The notes: generated by a model from the sequence alone, not told the origin. A stretch of DNA of 64,000 bases from an uncultured Clostridia bacterium (GCA_937896905.1 CALBOE010000002.1:56954-120953), one strand, 5' to 3'; counted from the first letter of the stretch, positions 13,594 through 34,511 are shown. Numbers and translations: made by a program.

Positions 13594-14940
13594 ATGGCAT
13601 TTTTTAGCAACCTAAGCGAACGACTAAACCACATTTTTAGCAAAATGACAAAGCGCGGGAAGTTAACCGCTTTAGAAATTAAAGAAGCAATGAGGGAAAT
13701 TCGAATTGCGCTTTTAGAGGCAGACGTTAACTATTCTGTTGCAAAAAACTTCATTAATAAAGTTAGCGAACTTGCAGTTGGTGAAGAAATTTTAAAAAGT
13801 TTAACCCCAACACAACAAGTTATTAAAATTGTTAGGGACGAATTAACTGCTTTAATGGGTGGGGAAAATCAAAAACTAATTGTTAGCCCAAAACCACCAA
13901 CAGTAATTATGATGTGTGGCTTGCAAGGTAGTGGTAAAACAACCATGTGCGGGAAGTTGGCACTTAAACTGAAAAAGGAAGGTAAGAAACCACTTTTAGT
14001 TGCGTGCGACATCTACCGCCCAGCGGCAATAGACCAACTTAAAGTGCTTGGAAAATCAATTAATATAGATGTGTTTGAACGAGGCTCGCAGGCACCAACC
14101 AAAACTGTTAAAGAAGCGGTTGCTTATGCCGAAAAGTTTGCGCTAGATACAGTTATTATAGACACCGCTGGACGACTTCAAATAGACGAAAAACTAATGG
14201 AAGAACTTAAAGATGTTAAAAAGGTTATTAATCCAACCGAAATTCTGTTAGTTATAGATGCCATGATTGGGCAGGAAGCCGTGGCAGTTTCCACCGCCTT
14301 TAACGACGCCCTTGACGTTACAGGTGTTGTGTTAACCAAAACAGATGGTGACACTCGTGGCGGTGCGGCACTTTCAATTCGTTCTGTTATTGGCAAGCCA
14401 ATTAAATTTGTTGGCGTTGGCGAAAAGTTAACCGACCTTGAACCATTCTATCCGGACCGTATGGCGTCTAGAATTTTAGGCATGGGAGACGTTTTAACTC
14501 TTATAGACAAAGCGCAAGAAGCGGTAGACGAAAAAATGGCAAAAGAAATGGAACGAAAATTCCGTGAAAACAGTTTCGACCTTAACGACTATATTGAACA
14601 ACTTAATTCTCTCAAAAAAATGGGCGGGCTTAAATCTGTTTTAGGAATGTTGCCAGGCATCGGTGGCAAACTTAAACAAATAGAGGATCAAATAGACGAA
14701 AAACAGTTAGAAAAAAATAAAGCCATAATTCAAAGTATGACGGCAAAAGAAAGGGCAAACCCCGATATTATTAACGGAAGTCGCAGGGCAAGAATTGCAA
14801 AAGGCAGTGGCACGCAAGTTAGCGATGTTAACCAACTTCTAAAACAATTTAATCAATCCAAAGAAATGATGCGTATGATGAAAAACCCAAAAGCACATGG
14901 CGGAAAGATGGCAATGATACGCAAACTTATGGGTGGCTAA
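13594..14940 (+). CDS. ffh: Signal recognition particle protein Ffh
   Basis: GLQGSGKTT, DTAGRL, TKTDGDTRGGAALS and a Met-rich M domain. Confidence 0.95.
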   Translation: MAFFSNLSERLNHIFSKMTKRGKLTALEIKEAMREIRIALLEADVNYSVAKNFINKVSELAVGEEILKSLTPTQQVIKIVRDELTALMGGENQKLIVSPKPPTVIMMCGLQGSGKTTMCGKLALKLKKEGKKPLLVACDIYRPAAIDQLKVLGKSINIDVFERGSQAPTKTVKEAVAYAEKFALDTVIIDTAGRLQIDEKLMEELKDVKKVINPTEILLVIDAMIGQEAVAVSTAFNDALDVTGVVLTKTDGDTRGGAALSIRSVIGKPIKFVGVGEKLTDLEPFYPDRMASRILGMGDVLTLIDKAQEAVDEKMAKEMERKFRENSFDLNDYIEQLNSLKKMGGLKSVLGMLPGIGGKLKQIEDQIDEKQLEKNKAIIQSMTAKERANPDIINGSRRARIAKGSGTQVSDVNQLLKQFNQSKEMMRMMKNPKAHGGKMAMIRKLMGG

Positions 14941-14997
14941 CGCCAATGGGCGTTTGGCAAAAGCTTCATCATACAAATAGCGGACACGCTATGAGCC

Positions 14998-15061
14998 GAT
15001 GAAAAACCCAAAAGCACAAGGCGGCAAGATGGCAATGATACGCAAACTTATGGGTGGCTAG
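14998..15061 (+). repeat. Ghost direct copy of the last 20 codons plus stop of ffh
   Basis: 61/64 identical to 14877-14940, offset 121 nt. All 3 differences are at third codon positions. Confidence 0.9.
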
Positions 15062-15083
15062 TAGTTTTAAATTAAAAAAATTA

Positions 15084-15107
15084 ATGGGAATTTAATCCCA
15101 TTTTTTT
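15084..15107 (+). terminator. Intrinsic terminator after the ffh ghost copy
   Basis: ATGGGA-atttaa-TCCCAT followed by T7, preceded by an A-run. Confidence 0.8.
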
Positions 15108-15118
15108 GTTTTTAACTA

Positions 15119-15147
15119 TTGAAATCCTAAAATCGGTGTGCTATAAT
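15119..15147 (+). promoter_or_regulatory. SigA-type promoter of the two-gene orphan cassette
   Basis: TTGAAA, 17 bp containing TGc, TATAAT (15142-15147). Confidence 0.7.
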
Positions 15148-15171
15148 CCAAATAAACTATAGGAGAAAGTT

Positions 15172-15540
15172 ATGGAATTTGAAACGAGATACATAGTTTG
15201 GTTTTATGTAGATAATGGCAATTTGCTTTTGCCCGTGGTAATAATCCCTGTATCAACAAAAAGAACAGTTGTTGTAAATTTAAATAACTCTAAAAGGTTT
15301 GTGATTGATGCAAATAAAATGGAAATTATACAAGAGTTAAAAGAAAGAATAAAAAGACAATGCAATGTTGAAACAATAAACTGTGATTACACCATCACAA
15401 TGTTAAGACGATTTGGAAATTTGCTACCTGAAGAAAAGGATTTATTGTTTAAAAGCAGTTTTAGTGCACAAGAAATAAAAATGTTAAAAACCCGTTTTGG
15501 ACAAAATATAAAAAACAACGAGCAGACAAATAACTTTTAA
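15172..15540 (+). CDS. Hypothetical protein (122 aa)
   Basis: AGGAGA RBS at 15161-15166 and its own promoter. No recognisable family. Weakly similar to the next ORF. Confidence 0.6.
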   Translation: MEFETRYIVWFYVDNGNLLLPVVIIPVSTKRTVVVNLNNSKRFVIDANKMEIIQELKERIKRQCNVETINCDYTITMLRRFGNLLPEEKDLLFKSSFSAQEIKMLKTRFGQNIKNNEQTNNF

Positions 15541-15549
15541 GGAGGGATT

Positions 15550-16029
15550 ATGTTAAAAAAATTACTGGTTAAAAAAATTTCAAAAGCTGATTTTGGCGAA
15601 AATAACCAAGTGGACTTATCTAAATTATTTTGGGTTTATGCAAAAGATGGTAATTTTATTAAACCAATATTTTTTGCAGATGGCTTATCTTTAATAATAC
15701 CAACCGACAAATTTGCAGCAGAAGTTGGAACCAGCAGCGCAAAAACCCCACCAAACGCAAAGAACCTTCAAACCCTTTTAAGTATTGTTAAAGAACAATA
15801 CAATTTGCAAGAATTGCCAAGGTTGGGCACCACACAAGTTATGATAAATAACCTATCTAAGGGGTTGTCTCACGAATTGGTGCGAGAAGTTAAACAAAAA
15901 TTGCAACAAGTTGAATTGGGGAAATGTAGCACAATAACAACAGAAGAGTTGCAACAAATTAGTAAAATCTTTTCAAAAAATCTAAAAAATGTAAGCACAT
16001 TGAACAAGGTTGAAGCATTTTCCGTTTAG
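15550..16029 (+). CDS. Hypothetical protein (159 aa), possible paralog of the preceding ORF
   Basis: AAGGAGGG RBS. Shared blocks with the upstream ORF: LFWVYAKDGNFIKP vs YIVWFYVDNGNLLLP, and ELQQISKIFSKNLKN vs EIKMLKTRFGQNIKN. Confidence 0.6.
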   Translation: MLKKLLVKKISKADFGENNQVDLSKLFWVYAKDGNFIKPIFFADGLSLIIPTDKFAAEVGTSSAKTPPNAKNLQTLLSIVKEQYNLQELPRLGTTQVMINNLSKGLSHELVREVKQKLQQVELGKCSTITTEELQQISKIFSKNLKNVSTLNKVEAFSV

Positions 16030-16065
16030 TTGCCCATAAAAAAATAAAAAATCTTATTAAAACCC

Positions 16066-16094
16066 TTGACAAGTGTTTAGGATTGATATATAAT
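16066..16094 (+). promoter_or_regulatory. SigA-type promoter of rpsP operon
   Basis: TTGACA, 17 bp, TATAAT (16089-16094). Confidence 0.75.
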
Positions 16095-16154
16095 GTAAAG
16101 TGAAATTGCTTTACAGCCCTTGGGCTAGTGAAGAAAATATAATAAGGAGAAATT

Positions 16155-16448
16155 ATGTCAGTTAAAATTAGATTAACTCGTTTGGGAGATAAAAAATCAC
16201 CATTCTATCGTGTTATTGTTGCAGACAGCAGAGTTGCAAGAGATGGCAAGTACATTGAACAAATTGGAACTTACAATCCACTAACAAACCCAGCTGAAAT
16301 CAAAATTAACACCGAATTGGCTACCAAATGGCTTAAAAACGGCGCTCAACCAACCGAAACTGCAAAAACACTTCTTCAAAAAGTTGGTGTTTTAGAAGTT
16401 AAGGGAAACAGCGTTGCAAAAACAAATAACAAGAAAAAGAAAGCATAA
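16155..16448 (+). CDS. rpsP: 30S ribosomal protein S16
   Basis: [26 protein letters not shown] matches the S16 family. AAGGAG RBS. Confidence 0.95.
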
Positions 16449-16458
16449 GGAGTGAACT

Positions 16459-16689
16459 ATGCAAGAAATGTTGGAATACATTGTTAAAAATCTTGTATCT
16501 GCTCCTAACGACGTTGAAATTGTTGCAGAAAGCCAAGGCAAAACTAAGGTTTTTAAGGTTAGAGTAAGCAAAAAAGATATTGGCAGTGTTATTGGTAGAG
16601 GCGGTTGCATTGCAAATGCTATTAGAACAGTTGTTAAATCAACCATTGATGGCAAAGAACGCATTGTAATTAAATTTGATGAAAAATAA
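16459..16689 (+). CDS. khpA: KH-domain RNA-binding protein (YlqC/KhpA, UPF0109)
   Basis: 76 aa with the KH core IGSVIGRGGCIANAIRTV. Conserved position between rpsP and rimM. Confidence 0.85.
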   Translation: MQEMLEYIVKNLVSAPNDVEIVAESQGKTKVFKVRVSKKDIGSVIGRGGCIANAIRTVVKSTIDGKERIVIKFDEK

Positions 16690-16697
16690 TCATTGTT

Positions 16698-16730
16698 GGC
16701 GGATATTATGTCCGCCGCTTTGCTTTTTTT
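16698..16730 (+). terminator. Possible terminator after khpA
   Basis: GGCGGA-tattatg-TCCGCC, then GCTTTGCTTTTTTT (T-tract not contiguous with the stem). Confidence 0.45.
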
Positions 16731-16781
16731 AAACTTTTTGCTATAATAATACTAATCATATAACAATAAAAGGGAAAAAAT

Positions 16782-17279
16782 ATGGAAAATTTATTAGAAG
16801 TTGGAAAAGTTGCTCGCCCACATGGAGTTAGAGGTGCAGTTAAAGTTTTGTGCTATATTGAAATCGGTTTGAATAATATTAAACAAGTTTATGTTGGCAG
16901 CAAACTAACGGCATATAATGTTAAGCAAGTTCAGGCATTGAATAATGATGCTTTCATTTTAACGTTAAAAGAAATTGCCACAGTTGAACAGGCGGACAAA
17001 CTAAGAAATTTATCTGTTTACATTAAAAGAGATGAAACAGAAGAGTTTAAAGATAAATTATATTTAAGCGATTTGTTAGGTAAGCAAGTGATTAACGAGA
17101 AAGGCGAAAAGTTGGGCGAGTTGGTAGATTATGAGGATTATGGTGCCAGCGTTATACTAACCATTCGCTGTGGGGTTGTTTCTTATTCCATTCCTTATGT
17201 TGATGGAATTATTGATTACAGTGAACAAGCAGATGCGTTTGTTATTAATGAACAAACATTTAAGGATATGCGCGTATGA
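16782..17279 (+). CDS. rimM: 16S rRNA processing protein RimM
   Basis: VGKVARPHGVRGAVKV N-terminus and a PRC-barrel C-terminus. rimM-trmD overlap. Confidence 0.9.
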   Translation: MENLLEVGKVARPHGVRGAVKVLCYIEIGLNNIKQVYVGSKLTAYNVKQVQALNNDAFILTLKEIATVEQADKLRNLSVYIKRDETEEFKDKLYLSDLLGKQVINEKGEKLGELVDYEDYGASVILTIRCGVVSYSIPYVDGIIDYSEQADAFVINEQTFKDMRV

Positions 17280-17944
17280 GAATAGACATTTTAACCCTTT
17301 TTCCAGAAATGTTTGCGCCACTTAAAGAAAGCATAATAAAAAGAGCAACAGAAGATGGTAAAATTGAAATTAACATAATAAACATAAGAGATTATGCCAA
17401 CCCACCACACTTTAAATGTGACGACGAACCTTTTGGTGGCGGTGCGGGAATGGTTATGCTTTGCGAGCCACTTTTTAAAGCAATAGAAGCAATGCAAACA
17501 GACGAATGCCAAATTTATTATATGAGCCCAAGAGGAGTGGTGTTTAACCAGGGAATAGCAAAACAGTTAAGCCAACAAACTCATATAATTTTAATTTGCG
17601 GGCATTACGAGGGAATAGACCAACGTGTTATAGATTATTTTAACATTAAAGAACTTTCTATTGGCGATTATGTTTTAACAGGTGGCGAACTTCCAGCAAT
17701 GGTGGTGGCGGATAGTGTAATTCGTTTGCTTCCTGGGGTTATAAGGGCAGAAAGCACAGCAGAAGAAAGTTTTTCCAATAACCTTTTGGAATATAATCAA
17801 TACACTCGCCCAAGCAATTTCCGTGGGCTTGTTGTGCCAGAAGTTTTATTAAGCGGAAATCATAAAAAAATTGCAGAATTTCGCGCACAACAATCGCTGG
17901 AAATAACACAAAAAAATCGCCCAGATTTATTGAATAAGCACTAA
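17276..17944 (+). CDS. trmD: tRNA (guanine37-N1)-methyltransferase TrmD
   Basis: MRIDILTLFPEMF, GGGAGMVM, CGHYEGIDQRV and LTGGELPAMV. Confidence 0.95.
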   Translation: MRIDILTLFPEMFAPLKESIIKRATEDGKIEINIINIRDYANPPHFKCDDEPFGGGAGMVMLCEPLFKAIEAMQTDECQIYYMSPRGVVFNQGIAKQLSQQTHIILICGHYEGIDQRVIDYFNIKELSIGDYVLTGGELPAMVVADSVIRLLPGVIRAESTAEESFSNNLLEYNQYTRPSNFRGLVVPEVLLSGNHKKIAEFRAQQSLEITQKNRPDLLNKH

Positions 17945-17984
17945 TTTTTGTGCTAGAATATTAAAGATTAAAAGAGAGTGAGTT

Positions 17985-18818
17985 ATGATAAATTGGTTCC
18001 CGGGGCATATGAACAAAACCTTAAAACAAATGCAAAATGATAGCAAGCTTTGCGATTGTTTTGTGTATGTGGTAGATGCTAGATGTCCACAAAGTTGCAT
18101 AAATCCAGAATTTATTAGGGTTATTAAAGGTAAACCTATAATTTTTGTGTTAAGCAAGGCAGATTTGGTGCAAAAAACCGACATTATTAAAGCCAAAGAG
18201 CATTTTATTAACCAAGGGCACAGCTGTGTGGAACTTAACGCCACAATAAGTGGAAGTGCAAAAGTTATAACTGCCGAAATTAAAAAGATTTTTGCTGTAC
18301 GCCTAAAACAAAATGCCGAAAAGCAAGTTAACTTTATAACTCGTGCAATGGTGTTGGGAGTTCCAAATTCTGGCAAAAGCACCATAGTAAATAACTTGTG
18401 TGGAAGTGGTAGGGCAGTAACAGGCAATAAGGCAGGCGTAACTAGAAGTAAACAGTGGATTAAAGTTGATGGCAACATAGAGTTTATGGACACACCTGGT
18501 GTGCTTCTTCCTAACTTTGAAAAGGACGAAACCGCATACAACCTTGCATTTGTTGGCAGTGTTAAAGACGACATTTTGCCGTTGCCTGAAGTTGCTTGCG
18601 AATTAATAGGAAGATTGAACAGCATTAATGGCGACATTTTGAAATCTAAATATGGTGTTGATAGTGCAAATTACACACACAATGTTGAAATTTTGGAAGC
18701 AATTGGTAAAAAGCGTGGTTGTATGATTAAAGGTGGCGAAATAGATTACGAGCGTGCTGCAAAAATTCTGTTAACCGAATTTCGTGCAGGTAAACTTGGG
18801 AAGATTTGCCTAGAGTAG
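17985..18818 (+). CDS. rbgA: Ribosome biogenesis GTPase A (YlqF/RbgA, circularly permuted)
   Basis: WFPGHMNK, permuted G motifs (LSKADL ... GVPNSGKST ... DTPG). Confidence 0.9.
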   Translation: MINWFPGHMNKTLKQMQNDSKLCDCFVYVVDARCPQSCINPEFIRVIKGKPIIFVLSKADLVQKTDIIKAKEHFINQGHSCVELNATISGSAKVITAEIKKIFAVRLKQNAEKQVNFITRAMVLGVPNSGKSTIVNNLCGSGRAVTGNKAGVTRSKQWIKVDGNIEFMDTPGVLLPNFEKDETAYNLAFVGSVKDDILPLPEVACELIGRLNSINGDILKSKYGVDSANYTHNVEILEAIGKKRGCMIKGGEIDYERAAKILLTEFRAGKLGKICLE

Positions 18819-18822
18819 GCTT

Positions 18823-19004
18823 GAAGAATTACCATTCGCTTAACGCTTCGCTAATCCGCTCAGGTAAACACTTCTCGCCTTTAGGATGGAGGTTCTATTA
18901 TCAATGGTGAGCTCAAAGAATTACCATTCGCTTAACGCTAACATTAATCCGCCTGAACCAATCAACCCTGCCTTTAAATGTCATTCTGAATGAGCGAAGC
19001 GAGT
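18823..19004 (+). repeat. Degenerate tandem repeat, period about 92 nt (2 units plus a partial third from 19005)
   Basis: AAGAATTACCATTCGCTTAACGCT at 18824 and 18916 (24/24; the preceding base differs, G vs A). Further shared blocks TAATCCGC and GCCTTTA. Third start GAAGAATC at 19005. Confidence 0.8.
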
Positions 19005-19043
19005 GAAGAATCTAAAAGATGTTTCGCTTCGCTCAACATGACA
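18979..19043. repeat. Imperfect palindrome / REP-like hairpin
   Basis: GAGCGAAGCGA (18992-19002) pairs with TCGCTTCGCTC (19024-19034). Outer stem TGTCAT/ATGACA. No T-tract follows. Confidence 0.8.
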
Positions 19044-19089
19044 CAAAAGAACGTGATATGTGTGCGGTGAAAGACCTAAAAGGAAAAAT

Positions 19090-19740
19090 ATGATAGACAC
19101 TTTAAAAACTTTTGAACACGATAAACAACTGCTAACCGAAAACATAACAACCATTGCAGGCATAGACGAGGTTGGGCGTGGCCCACTTGCGGGCCCGGTG
19201 GTTACGGCTTGTGTTATAATGCCCTACAGCGAAATGCTAAACGGAGTTTATGATAGTAAAAAGGTAACAAAAAAGAATAGAGATAAATTATACAACGAAA
19301 TTCTAAACAAAGCAATTAGCGTTTCCATTGCCATTAAAAACGAACAAGTTATTGACGAAATTAACATATTAAACGCAACCAAAGAAGCAATGAAGGAGTG
19401 TTATTTAAACAGCAAAATAAAGCCTGATTTGTTGCTTGTTGATGCTGTTAAACTAGATATTGCACCAAACGAAAAAGCAATTATTAAAGGAGATGCAACA
19501 AGCTACGCTATTGCGTGCGCATCTATTGTTGCAAAGGTTTATAGGGACAAATTAATGGAAGAATATGCTTTAACCTATCCGCAGTACGACTTTGAAAACA
19601 ATGTTGGCTATGGCACAAAAAAACATATAGAAGCCATTAAACAATTTGGAATAACACCAATTCACAGGCTAAGTTTTTTAAAAAACATAATAGGGGAAGA
19701 ACAGTGCAAAAAAATACATTTGGAAAGGCAGGCGAAATAA
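19090..19740 (+). CDS. rnhB: Ribonuclease HII
   Basis: Start trimmed to MIDTLKTF. IAGIDEVGRGPLAGPVV and DSKK motifs. Confidence 0.9.
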   Translation: MIDTLKTFEHDKQLLTENITTIAGIDEVGRGPLAGPVVTACVIMPYSEMLNGVYDSKKVTKKNRDKLYNEILNKAISVSIAIKNEQVIDEINILNATKEAMKECYLNSKIKPDLLLVDAVKLDIAPNEKAIIKGDATSYAIACASIVAKVYRDKLMEEYALTYPQYDFENNVGYGTKKHIEAIKQFGITPIHRLSFLKNIIGEEQCKKIHLERQAK

Positions 19741-20051
19741 TTGCGTGCAACTATCTTAAACAAAAGGGTTACAAAATAATTGGCACAAATGTTAAAAACC
19801 TAATTGGAGAAATAGACATTATTGCAAAGGATAATAAAACCCTTATTTTTGTGGAGGTTAAAACTAGGGCAAGCAATGCGTTTGGAAGTCCACTTGAAGC
19901 CATAGACCAACGAAAACAGCACAAAATTAGACAGGTTGCAACAATGTGGCAAAAACAACACAAACAACTAGAAGCACCCAGCAGATTTGACGCCATTTCA
20001 ATTGTTGGATTTGAAGAACCAGAAATAACGCATATTATTGATGCATTTTAA
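19704..20051 (+). CDS. yraN: UPF0102 YraN-family endonuclease-like protein
   Basis: GTG start overlapping the rnhB end. GKAGEIIACNYLKQKGYKII..GEIDIIAK....FVEVKTR matches the YraN pattern. Confidence 0.8.
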   Translation: MQKNTFGKAGEIIACNYLKQKGYKIIGTNVKNLIGEIDIIAKDNKTLIFVEVKTRASNAFGSPLEAIDQRKQHKIRQVATMWQKQHKQLEAPSRFDAISIVGFEEPEITHIIDAF

Positions 20052-20079
20052 AAAATTACATCTTTTTTCATAAAAATAC

Positions 20080-20108
20080 TTGCAAATATATTAATTGTGT
20101 GTTATATT
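20080..20108 (+). promoter_or_regulatory. SigA-type promoter of rplS
   Basis: TTGCAA, 17 bp containing TGt, TATATT (20103-20108). Confidence 0.65.
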
Positions 20109-20111
20109 GTA

Positions 20112-20165
20112 AAAGTTGTCAGCGGTCCGCTACGGTCCAACGCAAGAACGCTGAATTAGGAGGTA
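20112..20165 (+). promoter_or_regulatory. Structured rplS 5' leader (possible L19 autoregulatory leader)
   Basis: CAGCG...CGCTG stem enclosing GGTCCGCTACGGTCC, directly before the AGGAGG RBS. An L19 leader element is known in low-GC Gram-positives. I cannot verify the assignment by covariance here. Confidence 0.35.
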
Positions 20166-20168
20166 AGT

Positions 20169-20510
20169 ATGAATATTATCGACCAAATCGAGAAAGAACA
20201 ATTACGCAACGACCTTGCTCCTTTCAATGTTGGAGATACTGTAAGAGTGTCAGTTAAGGTCAAAGAAGGCGACAAGGAACGTATCCAAGCCTACGAAGGT
20301 GTTGTAATTGCAAAAAAAGGTGCAGGCGTTAGAGAAACCTTCACCGTTCGCCGTGTTTCGTTTGGCATTGGCGTTGAAAGAACATTCCCAATGAACAGCC
20401 CAAGAATTGATAAAATTGTTGTGGTTCGTAAGGGTAAAGTTCGTAGAGCAAAAATTTATTATGTTCGCAATCTTTCTGGTAAAGCCGCTAAAATCAAAGA
20501 AGACCGTTAG
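20169..20510 (+). CDS. rplS: 50S ribosomal protein L19
   Basis: [33 protein letters not shown] matches the L19 family. Confidence 0.95.
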
Positions 20511-20520
20511 GTCTTTTTTT
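20497..20520 (+). terminator. Intrinsic terminator overlapping the rplS stop (module A)
   Basis: AAGAC-cgttag-GTCTT followed by a T-run. Confidence 0.7.
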
Positions 20521-20581
20521 AGAGGATAGAACGGAAAGTTGCGAAACTCCTGCTAAGTAATTCTAATTACAGCAGATGTTA

Positions 20582-20635
20582 AATCTTTCTGGTAAAGCCG
20601 CTAAAATCAAAGAAGACCGTTAGGTCTTTTTTTAG
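20582..20635 (+). repeat. Exact 54-nt copy of the rplS 3' end plus terminator (module B)
   Basis: 54/54 identical to 20469-20522, offset 113 nt. Confidence 0.9.
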
Positions 20636-20652
20636 GCTTTACCCATGCAAAT

Positions 20653-20702
20653 GCTAAAGCCGCTAAAATTAAAGAAGACAGATAGTGTCTTCTTTTTTAG
20701 GC
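20653..20702 (+). repeat. Diverged copy of the rplS 3' end plus terminator (module C)
   Basis: Reads [10 protein letters not shown]-stop with ATC>ATT and CGT>AGA. Its own compensated hairpin GAAGACA-gatag-TGTCTTC followed by T6. Confidence 0.85.
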
Positions 20703-20735
20703 AGTCACTCGTCGAACATATGTTTGATAAATTAA

Positions 20736-20764
20736 TTGACAAATTTTTCTAATTGGTGTAGTAT
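20736..20764 (+). promoter_or_regulatory. SigA-type promoter of comM
   Basis: TTGACA, 17 bp, TAGTAT. Confidence 0.55.
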
Positions 20765-20776
20765 GAGGGAAAGAAG

Positions 20777-22315
20777 GTGCGTATGTTAGCAAAAATTTTA
20801 TCTTTTGGTTTAAATGGAATTTCGGGATACCCTGTTCAAATTGAGTTGGATATTAACTCTGGTTTGCCAGCTTATGATGTGGTTGGGCTTGCCGACACTG
20901 CCATTAAGGAAAGTAAATCTCGTGTTAAGGCTGCAATTAAAAACAGTGCCTTTAACTACCCAATTAACAAAATTATAGTCAATCTTGCTCCGGCAGACAC
21001 TAAAAAAGAAGGTAGTATGTACGACCTTCCTATTGCGCTTGCCATTTTAACCGCTCAGATGGACATTCCGCACCAAGCAATTAAAGATTATGTTGTGTTG
21101 GGCGAATTAAGTTTAGATGGCGAAATTAGAAAACTTAATGGTATTATGCCAATGTTAATTTCTGCCAAACAGTTGGGTTATAAAAAATTTATAATCCCAA
21201 AACACAATGCTGCTGAAGCAGGGTTTATTGATGGCATTGAAGTTTATGCAATGGAAAGTTTAAAACAAGCAGTTAAATTTTTAAAAGGCGAAGAAACAGT
21301 TGAAAAAGTTAATTGTAAAACCTATGAATCCGCTTTCAAAAAGCATAATTACAAGCACGATTTTGCCTATGTTCGTGGGCAAGCAAGTGCAAAAAGGGCA
21401 ATGGAAATTGCAGCGGCAGGCGGGCATAACATTTTACTTATTGGCCCACCTGGGGCGGGAAAAACAATGATGGCTAAGTGTTTTCCTTCAATATTACCAA
21501 ATTTAACGTTTGAAGAAAGCTTAGAAGTTACCAAAATTCATAGTGTGGCAGGAGTTTTGGATAGTTCAACAGGCATAGTTATTGAAAGACCATTTAGAAC
21601 CCCTCACCACACAGCAACATTAATCGCTTTAACGGGTGGCGGAAACAAAGCAAAACCGGGAGAAATTAGTTTGGCGCACAATGGTGTTTTGTTTTTAGAC
21701 GAAATGCCAGAATATGCAAGAACCACCATAGAAACCTTGCGTCAACCAATGGAAGATGGATACATAACTGTTTCAAGGAATGCTTTAACGGTGCAATATC
21801 CTGCAAATTTTGTTTTAGTGGCAAGTATGAACCCGTGCCCATGCGGTTATTACGGAAGCACCACAAAAGAGTGTAAGTGCAGCCCCAACGCAATTCATAA
21901 CTACCTTTCTAAAATAAGCGGGCCATTGCTAGATAGAATTGATTTGCACATTGAAGTTGATAGCATTAGTTATGACGACCTAACAGAAACGAGGTTGGAA
22001 GAGCCAAGTTCGGAAATTAAAAAGCGAGTTGATAAAGCAAGGCAACTGCAACTTGAAAGATTTAAAGATGGCAAAATTTATTCCAACAGCAAAATGGGAG
22101 AAAGGGAATTTAAACAGCATTGCACATTAAATAAAGATTGCACAGATTTGTTAGAATATGCGTTTAAAAAATTAAACCTTTCCGCAAGGGGATATAATCG
22201 CATTTTGAAAGTTGCCAGAACTATTGCGGATCTTGATGGTAAAGAAAACATAGAAAAACAACACATATTGGAAGCTATTCAATATCGTTCGTTAGATAAA
22301 AAGTATTCGGTGTGA
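20777..22315 (+). CDS. comM: Mg-chelatase-like AAA+ protein ComM/YifB
   Basis: GTG start (an ATG at 20783 is also possible). Lon-like N-terminus, GPPGAGKTMMA Walker A, VLFLDEMPE Walker B. Confidence 0.9.
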   Translation: MRMLAKILSFGLNGISGYPVQIELDINSGLPAYDVVGLADTAIKESKSRVKAAIKNSAFNYPINKIIVNLAPADTKKEGSMYDLPIALAILTAQMDIPHQAIKDYVVLGELSLDGEIRKLNGIMPMLISAKQLGYKKFIIPKHNAAEAGFIDGIEVYAMESLKQAVKFLKGEETVEKVNCKTYESAFKKHNYKHDFAYVRGQASAKRAMEIAAAGGHNILLIGPPGAGKTMMAKCFPSILPNLTFEESLEVTKIHSVAGVLDSSTGIVIERPFRTPHHTATLIALTGGGNKAKPGEISLAHNGVLFLDEMPEYARTTIETLRQPMEDGYITVSRNALTVQYPANFVLVASMNPCPCGYYGSTTKECKCSPNAIHNYLSKISGPLLDRIDLHIEVDSISYDDLTETRLEEPSSEIKKRVDKARQLQLERFKDGKIYSNSKMGEREFKQHCTLNKDCTDLLEYAFKKLNLSARGYNRILKVARTIADLDGKENIEKQHILEAIQYRSLDKKYSV

Positions 22316-22316
22316 T

Positions 22317-23399
22317 ATGACAGTTAAAGATAAAAACATTTTGTGGTTAGACACCTTTGCATTTTTAACCTATCAAAAAAAGATTAAACTTTTAAGCGTT
22401 TTTAATGTTGAGCAGGACATTAAAGCGTTTTTCGCATCGAATAGCAAAATTTATGAAATTTTAACGCAAGATGAAGTGTCTAAAATGCAAGCAGGATTAA
22501 ACAATGAGTTGCTAGAACGAACCATTCAAGATTATGAAAAGCAAGGCATTAAAACAATAACAATTTATAATGAAAACTACCCAACCATTTTAAAGGAAAT
22601 TCCATCACCGCCGCTTTGCCTATATTGCAAAGGCAACGTTCAACTGCTAAACACAGAGGCTATTGCAATTGTTGGAACAAGGAAGCCAACAGATTATGGC
22701 ATTGTTACAACAAAACAGTATGCAAAAGAGTTTTGCGGGAATGATATAACAATAATTTCTGGAATGGCAATAGGTGTGGATACAATTGCCCATAAAACTG
22801 CATTGGAAGAAAATGGAAATACTATTGCAGTGTTGGCTGGTGGGTTTAATCACATTTATCCTTTAAGCAATATGCAGTTATTCAACAAATTAACAGAAAA
22901 CAATCTTGTTATAAGTGAAAACTGCCCAAGTATACTGCCGGCGCTGTATCATTTCCCAATAAGAAACCGCATCATTGCAGGTCTTTCTAGGGGTGTTTTA
23001 ATAACTGAAGCAGGTGCAAAAAGCGGTTCGCTTCACACTGCGAACTATGCCAACGATTTTAACAGAGAGGTTTTTTCCGTGCCCGGAAAAATTTCTTCTC
23101 CACAATCGGCTGGAACAAATGCAATTATTAAACAAAATATGGCAAATATCACTTTAAGCCCAGAAGATGTTTTAACTAATTTAGGGCTAAAAAATAGCAA
23201 ACCAGAAAAAAAGTGTTTCGTTCAACTTGACATTAAACACCAACTTGTATTAAATTATATTCAAACTGAAAAACGAACATTTCAAGAAATTGCCGATGAA
23301 ACTAAACTTTCGGCACAAGAGTTAAATTCCATTTTGCTGATGCTTGAAATGGACGGTTTAGTTCTTAAACTTGCAAACAACAGTTACATTTCAGCGTAA
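22317..23399 (+). CDS. dprA: DNA processing protein DprA (Smf)
   Basis: IVGTRKPTDYG and GMAIGVDTIAH Rossmann-like core. C-terminal winged-helix region. Confidence 0.9.
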   Translation: MTVKDKNILWLDTFAFLTYQKKIKLLSVFNVEQDIKAFFASNSKIYEILTQDEVSKMQAGLNNELLERTIQDYEKQGIKTITIYNENYPTILKEIPSPPLCLYCKGNVQLLNTEAIAIVGTRKPTDYGIVTTKQYAKEFCGNDITIISGMAIGVDTIAHKTALEENGNTIAVLAGGFNHIYPLSNMQLFNKLTENNLVISENCPSILPALYHFPIRNRIIAGLSRGVLITEAGAKSGSLHTANYANDFNREVFSVPGKISSPQSAGTNAIIKQNMANITLSPEDVLTNLGLKNSKPEKKCFVQLDIKHQLVLNYIQTEKRTFQEIADETKLSAQELNSILLMLEMDGLVLKLANNSYISA

Positions 23400-23407
23400 G
23401 GAGAATT

Positions 23408-27301: not shown

Positions 27302-27305
27302 TTAT

Positions 27306-28613: not shown

Positions 28614-28659
28614 TTTAATTAGCTAAACCTTGCAGTTGGGATAATGGTAAAGGGAGTGT

Positions 28660-29352: not shown

Positions 29353-29363
29353 GGGAGAGTTAA

Positions 29364-29693: not shown

Positions 29694-29700
29694 CACATGG

Positions 29701-29725
29701 AAATCGCCTTCTGTGGCGATTTTTT
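29701..29725 (+). terminator. Intrinsic terminator after trxA
   Basis: AAATCGCC-ttctgt-GGCGATTT followed by a T-run. Confidence 0.8.
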
Positions 29726-29764
29726 CATGCTAAAAATCGTTAGATGTTTATATAAATATAACTA

Positions 29765-29793
29765 TTGACAAATTTATTAATATGTGCTAAATT
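29765..29793 (+). promoter_or_regulatory. SigA-type promoter of nifS
   Basis: TTGACA, 17 bp containing TGc, TAAATT. Confidence 0.65.
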
Positions 29794-29810
29794 CAAAGTG
29801 GAGAAATTTT

Positions 29811-31007
29811 ATGGAAAGAATATATTTAGACAATGCTTCTACCACAAGTTTGAGTGCCGAAGTTTTAAATGCCATGATGCCTGTTTTAACCGACAATTTT
29901 GGAAACTCTTCTTCAATTCATTCTTTTGGCAGAGATGCAGCAAATTTAATAGACCACAGCAGAGATATTATTGCAGATTCCATTAATGCAAAATCAAATG
30001 AAATTTATTTTACTGCAAGTGGAAGTGAGGCTAATTCCTGGGCAATAATTGGGCTGGCAAATGCCAATCGCCTTCATGGAAATCACATTATAACAAGCAA
30101 AATAGAACATCCATCGGTTTTGGAAGCGTGCAAGTATTTGGAAAACAATGGCTTTAAAGTTACATATTTAGATGTGGACCACAATGGCTTTGTAAATTTT
30201 GCACAGTATTTAAGTGCGCTATCTTCTAACACTGTTTTGGTTTCTATTATGTGTGCCAACAATGAAATTGGAACAATTCAAAACATTAAGGCACTTGCTC
30301 AAACTGCTCACGAAAAAGGCATAATTTTTCACACAGACGCAGTGCAACTTTATGGCAATATGGTGATTGACGTGCAGGATTTAGGAATAGACGCAATGAC
30401 AATTTCTGCACACAAAATTTATGGGCCTAAAGGCGTGGGTTGTTTGTATGTTTCTAACAAGTTAAAATTAGATCCTATTGTTTTTGGTGGCAACCAAGAA
30501 CGTGGGAAAAGGGGCGGAACAAGTAATACAGCTGGAATTGTTGGCTTTGCTAAGGCGGCAGAAATTGCAACAACTCACATGAGAGCCAACAACAATAAAA
30601 TTAGAGCATTAAGTGAATATTTCCTTACTAAACTAACCCATTTGGTAGAAAACATAACAATTAATGCGAAAGTTAAACAAAAACTTCCACACATAATTTC
30701 GGTTTCGTTCACAGGTATTGACGGCACAAGTTTATTAACAAAACTAGATTTGAATGGGGTTGCAGTGTCGGCTGGAAGTGCATGCACAAGCAACAGTTTG
30801 TCAATTTCGCACGTAATTTCTGCCATTGGTGCTAATAATGATGTGGCAAGAAGCACAGTTCGTTTTAGTTTGGGCAAAAATAATACATACGAAGAAATAG
30901 ATGCGGCAGTTGCCATAATTAAGCGATCAGTTGACGAACTTCGTGCATATTCTTCAACTTATGGCTTAAAAATTCGTAAGAGAAAGGGGGACGGCAAAGA
31001 TGTATAG
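29811..31007 (+). CDS. nifS: Cysteine desulfurase NifS/IscS family
   Basis: Start trimmed to MERIYLDNASTT. PLP lysine in SAHKIYGPKG. Active-site Cys in SAGSACTS. Confidence 0.9.
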   Translation: MERIYLDNASTTSLSAEVLNAMMPVLTDNFGNSSSIHSFGRDAANLIDHSRDIIADSINAKSNEIYFTASGSEANSWAIIGLANANRLHGNHIITSKIEHPSVLEACKYLENNGFKVTYLDVDHNGFVNFAQYLSALSSNTVLVSIMCANNEIGTIQNIKALAQTAHEKGIIFHTDAVQLYGNMVIDVQDLGIDAMTISAHKIYGPKGVGCLYVSNKLKLDPIVFGGNQERGKRGGTSNTAGIVGFAKAAEIATTHMRANNNKIRALSEYFLTKLTHLVENITINAKVKQKLPHIISVSFTGIDGTSLLTKLDLNGVAVSAGSACTSNSLSISHVISAIGANNDVARSTVRFSLGKNNTYEEIDAAVAIIKRSVDELRAYSSTYGLKIRKRKGDGKDV

Positions 31008-31602
31008 CAAGGTTGTTTTAAATTTATTTTCAAACCCTAAAAATGCTGGCAGAATTTCAAAACCAGATGGAATTGCATCTCTTAGCAATGCGGACGAAAG
31101 CGCACATGTGGAGTTTTCCCTTAGAATAGATATGGGAATTATTATGAACTGCCAATTTAGGGCACAAGCAAACCCATACATTATTGCAATTTGTTCAACA
31201 ATAACCGAAATGGTAAAAGGCAAAATGATTGCAATGTTGTTTTTAGATGAAACAAGTGTTAAAAAAGCCTTGGGAGATGAAAGCGACATTGACATAAATT
31301 TCTGTATAGACTGCATTAAGTTGGCGGTGGCAGACTACAAAGAAAAGTTGGAAAAAGCAAACACCATAATAGATCCAACCAAGCCAAGAAGAGGTAGAAA
31401 ACCAAAAAATTTGGCACAGGACTCACATGATAACTTAAACGAAGAGGCAGAGGTTGTTTTAGACGACAATGTATTAAATGCTACCGAGTTTTTAGTTGAT
31501 ATGAACGAAGATGATGAAGATGCATTTAATGAAAGCGACGAAAACACATCTGGCGAAGTGGATTTTGACGATTTTGATGATGACGATTTTGGCGTGTATT
31601 AA
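31000..31602 (+). CDS. Degenerate IscU/NifU-like protein with AT-hook-like motif and acidic tail
   Basis: IscU-like N-terminus (MYSKVV..NPKNAG, EMVKGK), but the CGD and GCG cluster-ligand sites read ESA and ANP. PRRGRKPK motif. Tail is DFDDFDDDDF. Confidence 0.7.
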   Translation: MYSKVVLNLFSNPKNAGRISKPDGIASLSNADESAHVEFSLRIDMGIIMNCQFRAQANPYIIAICSTITEMVKGKMIAMLFLDETSVKKALGDESDIDINFCIDCIKLAVADYKEKLEKANTIIDPTKPRRGRKPKNLAQDSHDNLNEEAEVVLDDNVLNATEFLVDMNEDDEDAFNESDENTSGEVDFDDFDDDDFGVY

Positions 31603-31684
31603 AGTTGGTAAAATTTAGCAATTTCTCACCACAAATTTCCACATAATTTAACAAATTCTACAAATAATAAGCGTAGGAGGAGTT

Positions 31685-31864
31685 ATGAAAGAGTTATTGA
31701 TAGGAATGGGCATTGGCTTTATGGTTGGAGCCATAACTTGCAAATGCAATAAACCTTTTGCAGAAGCAATTGAAAAGGGAGTTGATAAAAGCAAAGAAAT
31801 TATTGAAGATATCAGCGACGAAGTTAAGGCGCAAGCCAACAAAGCAAAGAAACAAAATGATTAA
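31685..31864 (+). CDS. Small membrane-anchored protein (59 aa, below the ORF-track cutoff)
   Basis: AGGAGG RBS at 31676-31681. Reads MKELLIGMGIGFMVGAITC, then a charged helix. A strong terminator follows immediately. Confidence 0.5.
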   Translation: MKELLIGMGIGFMVGAITCKCNKPFAEAIEKGVDKSKEIIEDISDEVKAQANKAKKQND

Positions 31865-31870
31865 AATTTA

Positions 31871-31906
31871 AAATCTCTAAGCCGTAAAGTTTAGAGATTT
31901 TTTTGT
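31871..31906 (+). terminator. Intrinsic terminator after the small ORF
   Basis: AAATCTCTAA-gccgtaaagt-TTAGAGATTT followed by T-run. Confidence 0.85.
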
Positions 31907-31934
31907 TGAAAAACAAAATCGCTTATTTTTTTAT

Positions 31935-31963
31935 TTTACAATAATCATTTTTTTTGCTAATAT
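31935..31963 (+). promoter_or_regulatory. SigA-type promoter of ruvX (leaderless geometry)
   Basis: TTTACA, 17 bp containing TGc, TAATAT (31958-31963). The ATG lies 6 nt downstream. Confidence 0.6.
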
Positions 31964-31969
31964 ATTAAT

Positions 31970-32380
31970 ATGAAAGCAATGGGGATTGATTTTGGGCTGG
32001 CAAGAATTGGTGTTGCGTTTTCTGACGACACAAAAGTTTTGGCGTCGCCACATAAAACTTACCACAGAAAAAATTTGCAGGACGACATACAGTATTTTTG
32101 CAATTTAATAACAGAACAAAAGGTAGACGAAATTGTTTGCGGGCTTCCAATGAATATGATGGGGCAGGAGCAAGAAATAGCTCAAAAAACCAGAGCATTT
32201 ATGGCAGAACTAACCGCAAAAACTGCAATATCTGTTAATTTTGTTGACGAGCGTCTTTCTTCTGTTATGGCCGAAGAGTTTTTGAAACAAACCGAACGAG
32301 ATTGGAAAAAACGCAAGGAAAAGTTAGATAGTGTATCCGCTTCAATCATATTGCAGGATTACTTAGATTTAAGGAGATAA
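31970..32380 (+). CDS. ruvX: Putative pre-16S rRNA nuclease / Holliday junction resolvase-like YqgF (RuvX)
   Basis: MKAMGIDFGLARIGVAFSD and DERLSS motifs. Confidence 0.9.
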   Translation: MKAMGIDFGLARIGVAFSDDTKVLASPHKTYHRKNLQDDIQYFCNLITEQKVDEIVCGLPMNMMGQEQEIAQKTRAFMAELTAKTAISVNFVDERLSSVMAEEFLKQTERDWKKRKEKLDSVSASIILQDYLDLRR

Positions 32381-32383
32381 TAA

Positions 32384-32722
32384 ATGAACAATACAAACAA
32401 AAAAACCACAAAAGTTAAAGCAAAAAATCCAATTAAGCAACTTTTAGACGAAAATAATAACGACAACATCATTTTGTTTGACGATGACGGCAACAAAATT
32501 GAGTTCGAGCAAGTGGCATTAATTCCGCTAGAAGAAACAAATGTTACCTATGCAATTTTAATTCCAATAACACCAATGCAAGGCGTTGAAGACGGCGAAG
32601 GAGTTTTGTTTGCCCTAGACGAAGAAAACGAGCAGTTGGAAGTAATTAACGACGAAAAAATCATAGATAAAGTTTTAACAATATATCAACAACTTATTGA
32701 AGAAGGCGAAGGAAATAATTAA
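32384..32722 (+). CDS. DUF1292 family protein (YrzB-like)
   Basis: The pattern DDDGNKIEFEQVALIP...YAILIP and the conserved position after ruvX. Confidence 0.8.
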   Translation: MNNTNKKTTKVKAKNPIKQLLDENNNDNIILFDDDGNKIEFEQVALIPLEETNVTYAILIPITPMQGVEDGEGVLFALDEENEQLEVINDEKIIDKVLTIYQQLIEEGEGNN

Positions 32723-32729
32723 AAACAAC

Positions 32730-32760
32730 TGTAAAGTAAAAAATCTTTACAATATTTTTA
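32730..32760 (+). terminator. Possible terminator after the DUF1292 gene
   Basis: TGTAAAG-taaaaaat-CTTTACA, then an interrupted T-tract. Confidence 0.45.
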
Positions 32761-32768
32761 ATATATTG

Positions 32769-32797
32769 TTGACAAAACTGTTATTGTTTGATAAACT
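32769..32797 (+). promoter_or_regulatory. SigA-type promoter of rpsB-tsf
   Basis: TTGACA, 17 bp containing TGa, TAAACT. A leader of about 100 nt follows, with CCCAT...ATGGG and TTGCTT/AAGCAA pairings. Confidence 0.6.
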
Positions 32798-32902
32798 AAT
32801 ATAGTTCATGAAAAAAGCACCCATTATGATTGCTTCACTGTTGCCCTTGGGTTAAAAAGCAAAATGATTGATGGGGAAGACACAAACAGGAGGATTAAAA
32901 TT

Positions 32903-33718
32903 ATGTCAGTTATTTCAATGAAACAATTATTAGAAGCTGGTTGCCATTTTGGTCATCAAACAAGAAAATGGAACCCAAAAATGAAGAAGTTCATCTTCAC
33001 AGATAGAAATGATATTCACATTCTTAACTTGGAAGATACTTCTAAACAAATCGACGCAGCATACGTTTTCGTTAAAGAAAAAGTGCTTGCAGGTGCAAAC
33101 GTGCTTTTCATTGGCACAAAGAAACAAGCTAGCGAAACAGTTAAACAAGAAGCTGAACGTTCTGGAATGTTCTATGTTAACTCTCGTTGGTTGGGCGGAA
33201 CATTAACCAATTTCGTTACAATCCGTAAGAGAATTGACAGAATGAACAAACTAAACAACATGGAAGCTCTTGGAGATTTCGACTTGCTACCTAAAAAAGA
33301 AGTTATTAAACTTAGAGCAGAAAGAGATAAACTTGCAAACAACCTTTTGGGTATTAAGGATATGACATCTCTTCCAGGGTTGATTATTTTAGTAGACCCA
33401 CACACAGAACACATTGCAGTTCAAGAAGCTAAACGTTTAGGAATTCCAACTGTTGGTATTGTTGACACAAACGGAGATCCTGATGATGTTGACGTATGCA
33501 TTCCAGCAAATGACGATGCTATTGGCTCTGTAAAACTTATTATTAGTGCTTTAACAGACGCTATTTTAGAAGCAAAGGGTGGAGTTGTTCTTCACGACTT
33601 AACCGCTAACGACGAAGACGTTTCTATGGAAGCTATGGTTTCTGGCGAAGTTGCAAAAGATGAAGAAAAAGCAGCTGCAAAAACTCGTAAACCAGCAAAA
33701 AAAGAAGTTAAAGAATAA
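32903..33718 (+). CDS. rpsB: 30S ribosomal protein S2
   Basis: Start trimmed to [27 protein letters not shown] with AGGAGG RBS. Confidence 0.95.
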
Positions 33719-33758
33719 TATTAATTCAATAACTTGTTAATTAAAAAGGAGAAAGTAT

Positions 33759-34418
33759 ATGAATATTACAGCAAAAGATGTTGCTAATTTAAGAGATCTT
33801 ACCGGTGCAGGTATGATGGACTGCAAAAAAGCTCTTGTTGAAGCAGACGGAAACGTAAACAAAGCAGTTGAAATTTTACGTGAAAGAGGAATTGCTAAAG
33901 CTGCTAAAAAAGAAGGCAGAATTGCAGCAGAAGGTTTTGTAGATAGTTACGTTCACGGTGGTGGAAGTTTTGCTTCTTTGGTTGAATTTAACACCGAAAC
34001 CGACTTTGCAGCAAAGAACGAAGAACTACGTGAATTTGCTCATAACGTTGCAATGCAAGTTGTTGCATCTCGTCCAATTTGTGTAAGTATTGAAGAATTG
34101 CCACAAGATGTTGTTGCAAAAGAAAGAGAAATCAATCGTGCTCAACTTCTTAACGAAGGTAAGCCAGAAGCAATGGTAGACCGCATTGTTGAAGGCAAAA
34201 TGAACAAATATTATGAAGAAGTTGTTTTGCTAGAACAAACATATATTAAAGACCCAGATGGCAAAAAGAAAGTTAAAGACGTTTTAACTGCTCTTATTGC
34301 AAAAATTGGTGAGAAAATTACAATTCGCCGTTTCCACCTTATGGTTATGGGCGAAGGTTTAACAAAACGTAATGACGATTTCGCAGCAGAAGTTGCAGCG
34401 CAATCCCAAATGAAGTAG
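33759..34418 (+). CDS. tsf: Elongation factor Ts (short form)
   Basis: [19 protein letters not shown]-like N-terminus. Confidence 0.95.
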
Positions 34419-34460
34419 AAGTTAAAAAACTTTGCAAGAAACCTCGAACTTGTTGAGAGC

Positions 34461-34500
34461 TTTCGCAGCCGAAGTTGCAGCACAATCTCAAATGAAATAA
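34461..34500 (+). repeat. Ghost copy of the last 12 codons plus stop of tsf
   Basis: 35/40 identical to 34379-34418. All 5 differences are synonymous third-position changes (including TAG>TAA). Confidence 0.9.
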
Positions 34501-34511
34501 TATTTAGAGGG

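Follow-up and report, generated by a model that had tools for sequence, protein, structure and literature searches.

Displaced copies of gene 3' ends behind ffh, rplS and tsf in an uncultured Clostridia bacterium, probably left by short cassettes imported by recombination

Background

Why should a conserved housekeeping gene be followed, shortly after its stop codon, by a second copy of its own last codons? The question is raised by a 64,000-nucleotide stretch of DNA from an uncultured Clostridia bacterium (GCA_937896905.1, CALBOE010000002.1:56954-120953; the whole stretch is referred to here as the window, and positions are counted from its first letter), in which the final 11-23 codons of three genes (ffh, rplS and tsf) are present in one or two extra copies upstream of the original terminator. 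A first-pass annotation of this DNA had described the same order at each gene: a functional end, a spacer, a displaced or "ghost" 3' end, and the terminator. That order is present at all three, with 42-59 nt between the functional end and the first ghost. The explanation that appears probable, though well short of assured, is that the displaced tails mark cassettes imported from other strains by recombination.

The nearest Ffh homologues (SRP54 family) are 92% identical, and those with names belong to Candidatus Onthoplasma (Christensenellaceae), from gut metagenome bins. Related loci were collected via TopA and by exact-protein look-ups of Ffh and EF-Ts variants; L numbers denote these fetched loci, and P numbers denote variants of the Ffh and EF-Ts proteins. 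All sequences compared are metagenome assemblies. When the Ffh, L19 and EF-Ts sequences of the window were looked up for exact matches, no second assembly of the same strain turned up.

Structure of the three loci

All features of the three loci are on the plus strand. The ffh gene (13594-14940, 448 aa), identified from the list of open reading frames (ORFs) and a homologue search, ends in its current functional tail, the last 21 codons plus a TAA stop (MKNPKAHGGKMAMIRKLMGG, 14877-14940, delimited by repeat comparison). A 57-nt spacer (14941-14997) separates this from the ghost tail with a TAG stop (MKNPKAQGGKMAMIRKLMGG, 14998-15061), which lies beyond the ffh stop codon and out of the ffh frame. 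The repeat covers 63 nt (14877-14939 versus 14998-15060) with three differences, all at third codon positions, and an intrinsic terminator stands behind the ghost (15083-15110). The spacer carries TTCATCATAC (14965-14974), the inverse of GTATGATGAA at 14873-14882 (p=0.002 for the inverted copy), and a hairpin at the junction, ATAGCG-GACA-CGCTAT (14977-14992, p=0.003). It is homologous to the ffh spacers of L063 and L085 (p=0.0005), and is a member of a family common to L063, L007, L085 and L094 (p = 0.0005).

The rplS gene (20169-20510, 113 aa) was taken from the ORF list and assigned to the L19 family from the orthologues of relatives. Its functional tail (copy 1, 20469-20522) includes a terminator stem of its own, AGACC-GTTA-GGTCT, with a T run. 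After a 59-nt spacer (20523-20581) comes copy 2 (20582-20635), the last 42 nt of the gene plus the terminator, identical to copy 1 at 54 of 54 positions. This repeat is exactly as first annotated, but a third, diverged copy (20653-20697) had been missed. It is reached across a short junction, GCTTTACCCATGCAAAT (20636-20652), in which GCTTTACC is the inverse of GGTAAAGC at the start of the repeated tail. Copy 3 is an older allele: it has the codon changes ATC>ATT and CGT>AGA, and its own compensated terminator stem, GAAGACA-GATAG-TGTCTTC. Because this terminator resembles those of relatives, copy 3 is probably the original end of rplS. The long spacer carries GAAAGTTGCGAA (20534-20545), the inverse of TTCGCAATCTTTC in the gene (p=0.016), and a hairpin at 20550-20575 (p=0.008); the corresponding long-range stem has z=-5.0.

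The tsf gene (33759-34418, 219 aa; ORF list, EF-Ts family) has a functional tail (34379-34418, stop TAG) that is the newcomer allele, the native ends of relatives being less similar to it than to the ghost. The ghost tail (34461-34500) encodes the same peptide with five differences from the functional tail, all synonymous, and is 97% identical to the native tsf end of relative L007. The terminator, ATAGCAAGTAAATTACTTGCTAT with a T run (34506-34542), is kept in relatives directly behind the native tsf end. In the 42-nt tsf spacer (34419-34460), inverted copies and hairpins alike fall short of significance.

A TTCGCA hexamer is found at or beside the start of the duplicated segment in tsf (34379-34390 in the window; 10622 in L121) and in rplS (20460-20470); with so few cases this may be coincidence.

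Tails gained and lost between near-identical loci

The C-terminal 24 residues of Ffh are polymorphic among 120 relatives (P0001-P0120) that are 88-92% identical overall. The tail types are A (...KMAMIRKLMGQ, 448 aa), D (...KFKMMKNLLNGGGF, 451 aa), and hybrids of these, which is the outcome that exchange of cassettes would give; from the sequences, Ffh tails look as if they had been exchanged independently of the body of the protein.

Two comparisons within species capture such exchanges. In L104, ffh is of the native D type (451 aa) and overlaps at its end with a convergent helix-turn-helix (HTH) gene. L084 is 96-99% identical to L104 on either side of a precise 124-nt insert, which consists of an A-type tail, a stop codon and a 60-nt spacer ending in GATGAAAAACCC; the displaced D tail of L084 still overlaps the HTH gene. 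The insert is bounded by an imperfect 18-nt repeat, GATGAAGAATCCAAAAGC / GATGAAAAACCCAAAAGC. At the protein level, P0007 and P0066 are identical over 438 residues and differ in the tail alone. The second comparison is between L122, which has a single tail and thus an empty site, and L094, which is 97-99% identical and has a 277-nt insert made of two stacked cassettes. The ghost in L094 is the functional end of L122, and the final residue is the sole difference between proteins P0021 and P0023. Since the proteins differ only in their tails, and the inserts stand in near-identical loci, the unit of change is the tail rather than the gene, and it is the resident allele that survives as the ghost. 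The insertion polymorphism and its boundaries are directly visible in these loci: tail, stop codon and spacer are gained or lost together, as one cassette.

The boundaries are informative about how the cassette moves. The left one lies in a conserved block of ffh, and the flanks of both the 124-nt and the 277-nt insert are 96-99% identical to the empty sites, which places one junction within extended homology. On the right, the 18-nt imperfect repeat of L084 runs on into homologous tail sequence, so homologous recombination suffices for the transfers that can be reconstructed. L084 is also a reciprocal hybrid: its functional copy contains a block of the recipient type, and its ghost is headed by a block of the donor type. 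This is the pattern predicted if the two arms of a homologous recombination are the gene body, on the left, and the beginning of the displaced tail, on the right.

Coding constraint and frequency of displaced tails

Eleven pairs of functional and ghost tails could be compared (ffh, tsf, rplS and an ORF of L063). Third codon positions account for 33 of the 39 differences (binomial P = 6e-11), and 30 of the codon changes are synonymous while 5 are non-synonymous; two CGT/AGA arginine switches are among them. The non-synonymous ghost variants, a terminal Gln or Asn, occur as functional alleles in other strains. This third-position bias is unlike neutral decay after a local duplication, which argues that the copies were functional alleles in different genomes until recently. 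The first-pass annotation had counted eight of eight substitutions at third positions in the ffh and tsf ghosts; the count is correct, but two of the eight lie in stop codons and one (CAT>CAA, His>Gln) is non-synonymous. Its proposal that the ghosts diverged under coding selection as real alleles is upheld by this larger set and by the two within-species comparisons.

Displaced tails are also more frequent than expected by chance. When all 68 plus-strand ORF ends were each compared with the next 400 nt, ffh, rplS and tsf scored 57, 52 and 27, against a control maximum of 17; at the protein level they scored 98, 63 and 55, against a control maximum of 37. No further ORF in the 64 kb stands out in these scans. 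When stretches of 22 kb from the window and seven close relatives were scanned, 5 of the 294 ORF ends had a ghost tail, and in 71 distant genomes there were no true cases among 1987 ORF ends (Fisher P = 3e-5).

Recurrence across the clade

The same architecture recurs in related organisms. Two or three stacked tails follow ffh in 6 of the 10 lineages examined (the window, L132, L007, L063, and the P0007 and P0021 strain groups). The layouts of the stacks are conserved; one of them, A - spacer - D - spacer - A' with a spacing of 272-277 nt, was present in 17 independent contigs from differing samples and assemblers, and identical cassettes were found in differing species backgrounds. There are two tsf tails in L119/L120 and four in L121 (GCA_947584775.1, 10622-10930), where they form an array with a 79-nt period. 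The 33-nt tail copies of this array vary only at third codon positions and its two full 46-nt spacers are identical, so the spacers look younger than the tails between them. An unrelated 233-aa ORF in L063 has a ghost as well. No ghosts were found in 15 related rplS loci. P0126, the best-sampled species for tsf, has no tail ghost, just a duplication of the terminator.

That duplication, a 45-nt tandem repeat of the tsf terminator unit, is present in L133, L138 and L141 and is not present in L134-L137, L139, L140 and L142, all of one species. Small duplications in 3' untranslated regions (3'UTRs) are thus polymorphic in the clade even where there is no tail ghost.

Some 3'UTRs counted as ghost-free resemble decayed ghosts. 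At approximately 245-300 in L005, ATGTAAAAAACCAAATTTTCAA just past the ffh stop is similar to ATGTTAAAAAATCCGAAGGCAAAC in the same gene, and the tsf 3'UTR of L002 is loosely similar to its own tail. Judged by such resemblances, spacers may in part be old ghosts.

Origin of the spacers

Two spacers could be traced. For the ffh spacer of L063, the match is to the DNA that directly follows the ffh stop codon in L111, a ghost-free strain of A type (p = 0.001); for the tsf spacer of L119, it is to 37 nt of the native 3'UTR of tsf in L002 (p = 0.0005). These matches indicate that some spacers derive from the 3'UTR that the same gene has in another lineage. A comparison of spacers with regions downstream of orthologues, as the first-pass annotation had suggested, gave matches for L063 and L119 and none for the rplS and tsf spacers of the window. 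Spacers are single-copy, and a scan of JGI metagenomes for the conserved ffh spacer motif returned merely three chance matches, in unrelated high-GC genes.

A model of import by recombination

The evidence is best accommodated by a cassette of ca. 80-280 nt that inserts into the 3' end of a conserved gene. Its unit would be a replacement tail (the last 11-23 codons and stop) followed by 42-84 nt of 3'UTR-like DNA, usually ending in a hairpin, with the longer cassettes made of two such units. The new tail would complete the reading frame, so that the gene still works, and the resident tail would be pushed downstream, ahead of its own terminator, to stay there as an untranslated fossil; repeated insertion would build a stack of fossils. 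The replacement tails would be alleles of other strains or lineages, which would account for tail copies that differ almost only at synonymous sites.

Once formed, a cassette could pass from one genome to another by ordinary homologous recombination, pairing on the left within the gene body and on the right within the first, conserved 15-30 nt of the displaced tail. We infer that transfer takes place by recombination between these arms, most likely after entry of the DNA by natural transformation, given that the competence genes comM (20777-22315) and dprA (22317-23399) are both in the window. The ghost would then be not just a scar but the homology through which the cassette can recombine into any genome that has a related tail. 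This would account for the insertions that spread being those within coding tails.

The origin of the first cassette at each gene is more speculative. It may have been a one-sided homologous recombination with a diverged donor, in which template switching connected the non-homologous 3'UTR end of the donor DNA, hairpin-protected or self-primed, to the resident tail at a microhomology close to the beginning of that tail. Such joining would leave an inverted fragment and a hairpin at the joint, and the junction hairpins and inverted copies, taken together, do point to template switching.

Of the explanations offered by the first-pass annotation, the one nearest to this model was homology-facilitated illegitimate recombination after natural transformation, importing a donor 3' end with a piece of donor intergenic DNA. 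It is the best fit in that tails are swapped on otherwise identical proteins, two spacers match native 3'UTRs of other lineages, and comM and dprA are present. It does not hold in full: both crossovers are homologous in the reconstructed transfers, an illegitimate join would be confined to the founding events, and inverted copies and junction hairpins in the spacers were not predicted.

Alternative explanations

Several observations weigh against import. No founding event with donor, recipient and product together was found in the loci compared, and the rplS and tsf spacers of the window have no source match in the window, the fetched loci or the native 3'UTRs compared. The competence of this uncultured organism is no more than presumed, from the presence of comM and dprA. 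Copies 1 and 2 of rplS are identical, which local duplication fits as well as import does, and the L119 and L121 arrays are plain tandem repeats. Three further features are not predicted by import of foreign ends. An inverted copy (10-24 nt) of gene sequence from the tail start is present in 7 of 8 spacers (p 0.002-0.016 each), which yields long-range stems with the functional tail inside. At 10 of 14 junctions the ghost is preceded, at a distance of 0-8 nt, by the end of a strong hairpin of 9-12 bp that is often perfect (p <= 0.008 each). The breakpoints of independent cassettes, whose spacers are unrelated, fall within the same ca. 10 nt in ffh and in tsf.

The main rival for the origin of the cassettes draws on the inverted copies, the hairpins, the identical rplS copies and the tandem arrays: in-situ template switching or slippage at 3'UTR hairpins, producing small tandem-inversion or tandem duplications, with the functional copy later replaced when other strains recombine with it by homology. 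Hairpin formation by template switching has been described (PMC8794818), the palindromes at the junctions are near-perfect with 3-nt loops, and several spacers consist partly of alternating direct and inverted fragments of their own tail. Local template switching or slippage is clearly at work in this clade too, as in the L119 and L121 arrays and the 45-nt terminator duplication of the P0126 species. As an account of the ghosts as a whole it is unlikely, however, because stacks mix very different tail types (A-B-C and A-D-A' at ffh), which in-situ duplication cannot produce. In addition, the two traced spacers match the 3'UTRs of other lineages, the inverted copies are more diverged than the direct ones, and the spacer is not repeated past the ghost in most loci, so these are not simple tandem duplications. 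The same hairpins could instead be the substrate of a dedicated enzyme encoded elsewhere in the genome, such as an integron-type integrase or an HUH nuclease acting in trans on single-stranded DNA to install or shuffle mini-cassettes. A hairpin end directly ahead of nearly every ghost, the recurrent breakpoints, and homologous hairpins that differ between lineages by paired changes (four compensatory pairs between L132 and L085) would all suit such an enzyme, but the junctions of ffh, rplS, tsf and the L063 ORF have no sequence motif in common, the spacers are single-copy, the hairpin arms look gene-derived, no recombinase, transposase or reverse transcriptase is present in window positions 1-42 kb or beside related loci, and homologous recombination is enough for the transfers actually seen; on balance this is distinctly improbable. 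A broader proposal would make gene-tail mini-cassettes (replacement 3' end, inverted target copy and hairpin) a class of mobile DNA, installed at a defined point of conserved genes by a trans-acting, hairpin-dependent single-strand recombinase, HUH nuclease or reverse transcriptase, or would have stacked tails kept by selection as reserve alleles that deletion can re-fuse; it must count as a long shot.

The first-pass annotation had also offered scars of excised elements, and integrative elements (phage, island or integrative and conjugative element) that carried a replacement end and were since deleted would indeed follow the logic of elements entering the 3' ends of tRNA or protein genes; variable cargo genes do stand downstream of ffh in some strains. 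This is nevertheless highly improbable. No larger element lies between the copies in ca. 65 related ffh loci from 9 lineages, in which every extra tail is in the immediate stack and none is past the cargo; the cargo sits behind the native tail in the ghost-free strain L104; and three or four independent deletions would be needed, each leaving less than 85 nt. As had been noted from the start, there is no integrase or transposase nearby: none was found, nor any reverse transcriptase or cas gene, among the ORFs scanned across window positions 1-42 kb, which had Pfam matches to housekeeping families or no match, and no such genes were called adjoining any related locus. IMG/VR, the one viral collection scanned, held no contig with ffh or tsf tails when searched with degenerate patterns. 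Least probable of all are a strain-mixture assembly artefact and an insertion mechanism that makes target duplications of 40-70 bp, both of which had likewise been put forward. Every sequence here is a metagenome assembly and strain mixtures exist in such samples, but the same arrays with unique spacers recur in many independent samples and with several assemblers (SPAdes, MEGAHIT, Logan, scaffolds), and array-bearing and array-free alleles were each recovered many times, so an artefact is very unlikely. Long target duplication is contradicted by the copies being different alleles, and by a true flanking repeat that is an imperfect 18-mer. Import of cassettes from other strains remains the favored explanation.

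A number of other candidates were considered and rejected. ORFs of 406-407 aa near ffh and rplS in relatives, and a 407-aa ORF in the window, were suspected of encoding a transposase, but are three unrelated proteins: the window ORF is a class-V aminotransferase (NifS-like), and the two from relatives have no features of mobile elements. A diversity-generating retroelement does not fit, there being no reverse transcriptase in 1-42 kb and no adenine-specific pattern of differences (in tsf, C/A and T/C changes occur in both directions). The L121 array is not a CRISPR array – its 33-nt repeats vary at synonymous sites, its two 46-nt spacers are identical, and no cas genes were found among the ORFs scanned across window positions 1-42 kb. 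The hairpins have no common motif and were rejected as DNA uptake sequences. Spacers made up wholly of local tail fragments were also considered, but a mosaic was significant in just 4 of 11 spacers. Transposon target-site duplication is at odds with copies that are distinct alleles or tail types around an 18-nt flanking repeat, and an att scar of an integrative element is at odds with loci that have no integrase, no element body beside or between the repeats, and no free carrier in IMG/VR.

No Rfam family reached the gathering threshold anywhere in the window, and no tRNA or tmRNA genes were found in it. A permissive Rfam search of 14700-20800, a range that takes in ffh and rplS and leaves tsf outside, gave sub-threshold noise only.

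Relation to described systems

The first-pass annotation knew of no described system with this pattern, but there is an analogue in the displaced "orphan" 3' ends of contact-dependent inhibition (CDI) and Rhs loci. Orphan cdiA-CT/cdiI and rhs-CT/rhsI modules lie downstream of the CDI and Rhs toxin genes (PMC4927057, which in its passage on these modules credits Poole 2011 and Koskiniemi 2014). There, an acquired 3' end integrates and the old end is pushed downstream in the same orientation, with tandem arrays resulting from reiteration; at their junction the orphans retain conserved sequence with homology to the upstream gene, which permits re-fusion, and they act as a fossil record of transfers (PMC4927057). 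The stacks described here, of two to four tails that each begin at the same conserved block, have the same form. Unlike the CDI and Rhs orphans, they stand behind essential housekeeping genes rather than polymorphic toxin genes. Their modules are of 80-130 nt rather than kilobases, with no toxin, immunity or other ORF (only a spacer of 42-84 nt), and no transposase or integrase is associated with them. The tsf and rplS proteins are unchanged by the tail swap, so no selective reason is evident, in contrast to CDI and Rhs. The CDI/Rhs orphan ends are the closest described architecture and apparently work in the same way, but the tails described here are not members of that system.

Three other processes share part of the pattern. 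Homology-facilitated illegitimate recombination, described for natural transformation in Acinetobacter, Streptococcus pneumoniae and Pseudomonas stutzeri (PMC3240628), anchors one end in a conserved gene and drags in foreign DNA beyond the homology, as is expected in competent bacteria; it differs in the respects given above, in that a microhomology joint would here belong to the founding events alone. The minimal mobile elements of Neisseria (Saunders and Snyder 2002), in the portion of PMC3787668 that describes them, are variable inserts between conserved flanks, present or absent among close relatives, devoid of mobility genes, and spread by transformation and homologous recombination. The L094/L122 and L084/L104 pairs show the same traits, but the elements portrayed there are whole genes between two different conserved genes, and here the insert is a tail plus UTR whose right flank is a duplicate of the same gene. 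Tandem inversion duplications and template switches resemble these loci in their direct-inverted-direct order, palindromic junctions and hairpins formed from local sequence, and differ in that the direct copies here are different alleles or even different tail types, and the inverted piece is short (10-24 nt) and more diverged. Tandem inversion duplications were reportedly treated by Kugelberg and Roth in 2010. Short-range template switching is covered in PMC8794818 and PMC7954356.

In a limited full-text search of the literature, no account came up of ghost tails that are stacked behind housekeeping genes and show coding constraint. Elements that integrate at the 3' ends of tRNA or protein genes supply a replacement end, and the old end stays as a direct repeat (attL/attR). 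The arrangement described here is alike in that the target gene is kept intact by an incoming 3' end, and unlike in having no integrase and no element body, repeats that are allelic rather than an identical core, and inserts of 80-280 nt.

If the import model is correct, essential conserved genes hold a readable fossil record of recombination in the form of stacked old alleles of their last codons, and DNA without genes can spread between strains because it brings along a homology arm, namely the beginning of the tail that it displaces. The logic of toxin orphans would then operate at miniature scale in ffh, tsf and rplS, free of toxin/immunity selection. The arrays would be natural markers for the rate and direction of recombination in uncultured gut Christensenellaceae, and the signature of junction hairpin and inverted copy may show how intermediates of one-sided recombination are resolved in vivo. 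There is a practical side as well: ffh, tsf and rplS are standard phylogenetic markers, and such arrays confuse gene calling, the prediction of 3'UTRs and terminators, and strain-level marker typing.

Other features of the window

The window is a conserved housekeeping stretch of low GC content (35%), with nearly all genes on the same strand. The gene order is pcrA, ligA, smc, ftsY, ylxM, ffh, two unknown ORFs, rpsP, khpA, rimM, trmD, rbgA, rnhB, yraN, rplS, comM, dprA and topA, onward to rpsB, tsf, frr and uppS.

The gap between ffh and rpsP is a hotspot of variable cargo. In the window, 15172-16029 encodes two ORFs (122 and 159 aa) with no Pfam match; other strains (L084/L104) have an HTH_3 gene, a small ORF and a 406-aa ORF of unknown function, and in further strains the gap is empty.

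About 270 nt (18819-19089) are inserted between the rbgA stop codon and the rnhB start codon, two genes that abut or overlap in most of the relatives examined; two relatives have other inserted DNA at this place. Two 29-nt segments of the insert form a direct repeat (18819-18847 / 18911-18939, 93% identical), and there is also a hairpin rich in GC, GAGCGAAGCGA...TCGCTTCGCTC. Rfam gave no match to the insert, and no second copy is present in the window or the fetched loci.

Around tsf (33759-35189), frr follows directly and pyrH does not lie between the two; at 219 aa, the tsf product is short. The neighboring rpsB (32864-33718) has a C-terminal extension of ca. 50 aa that is rich in Lys, Ala and Glu.

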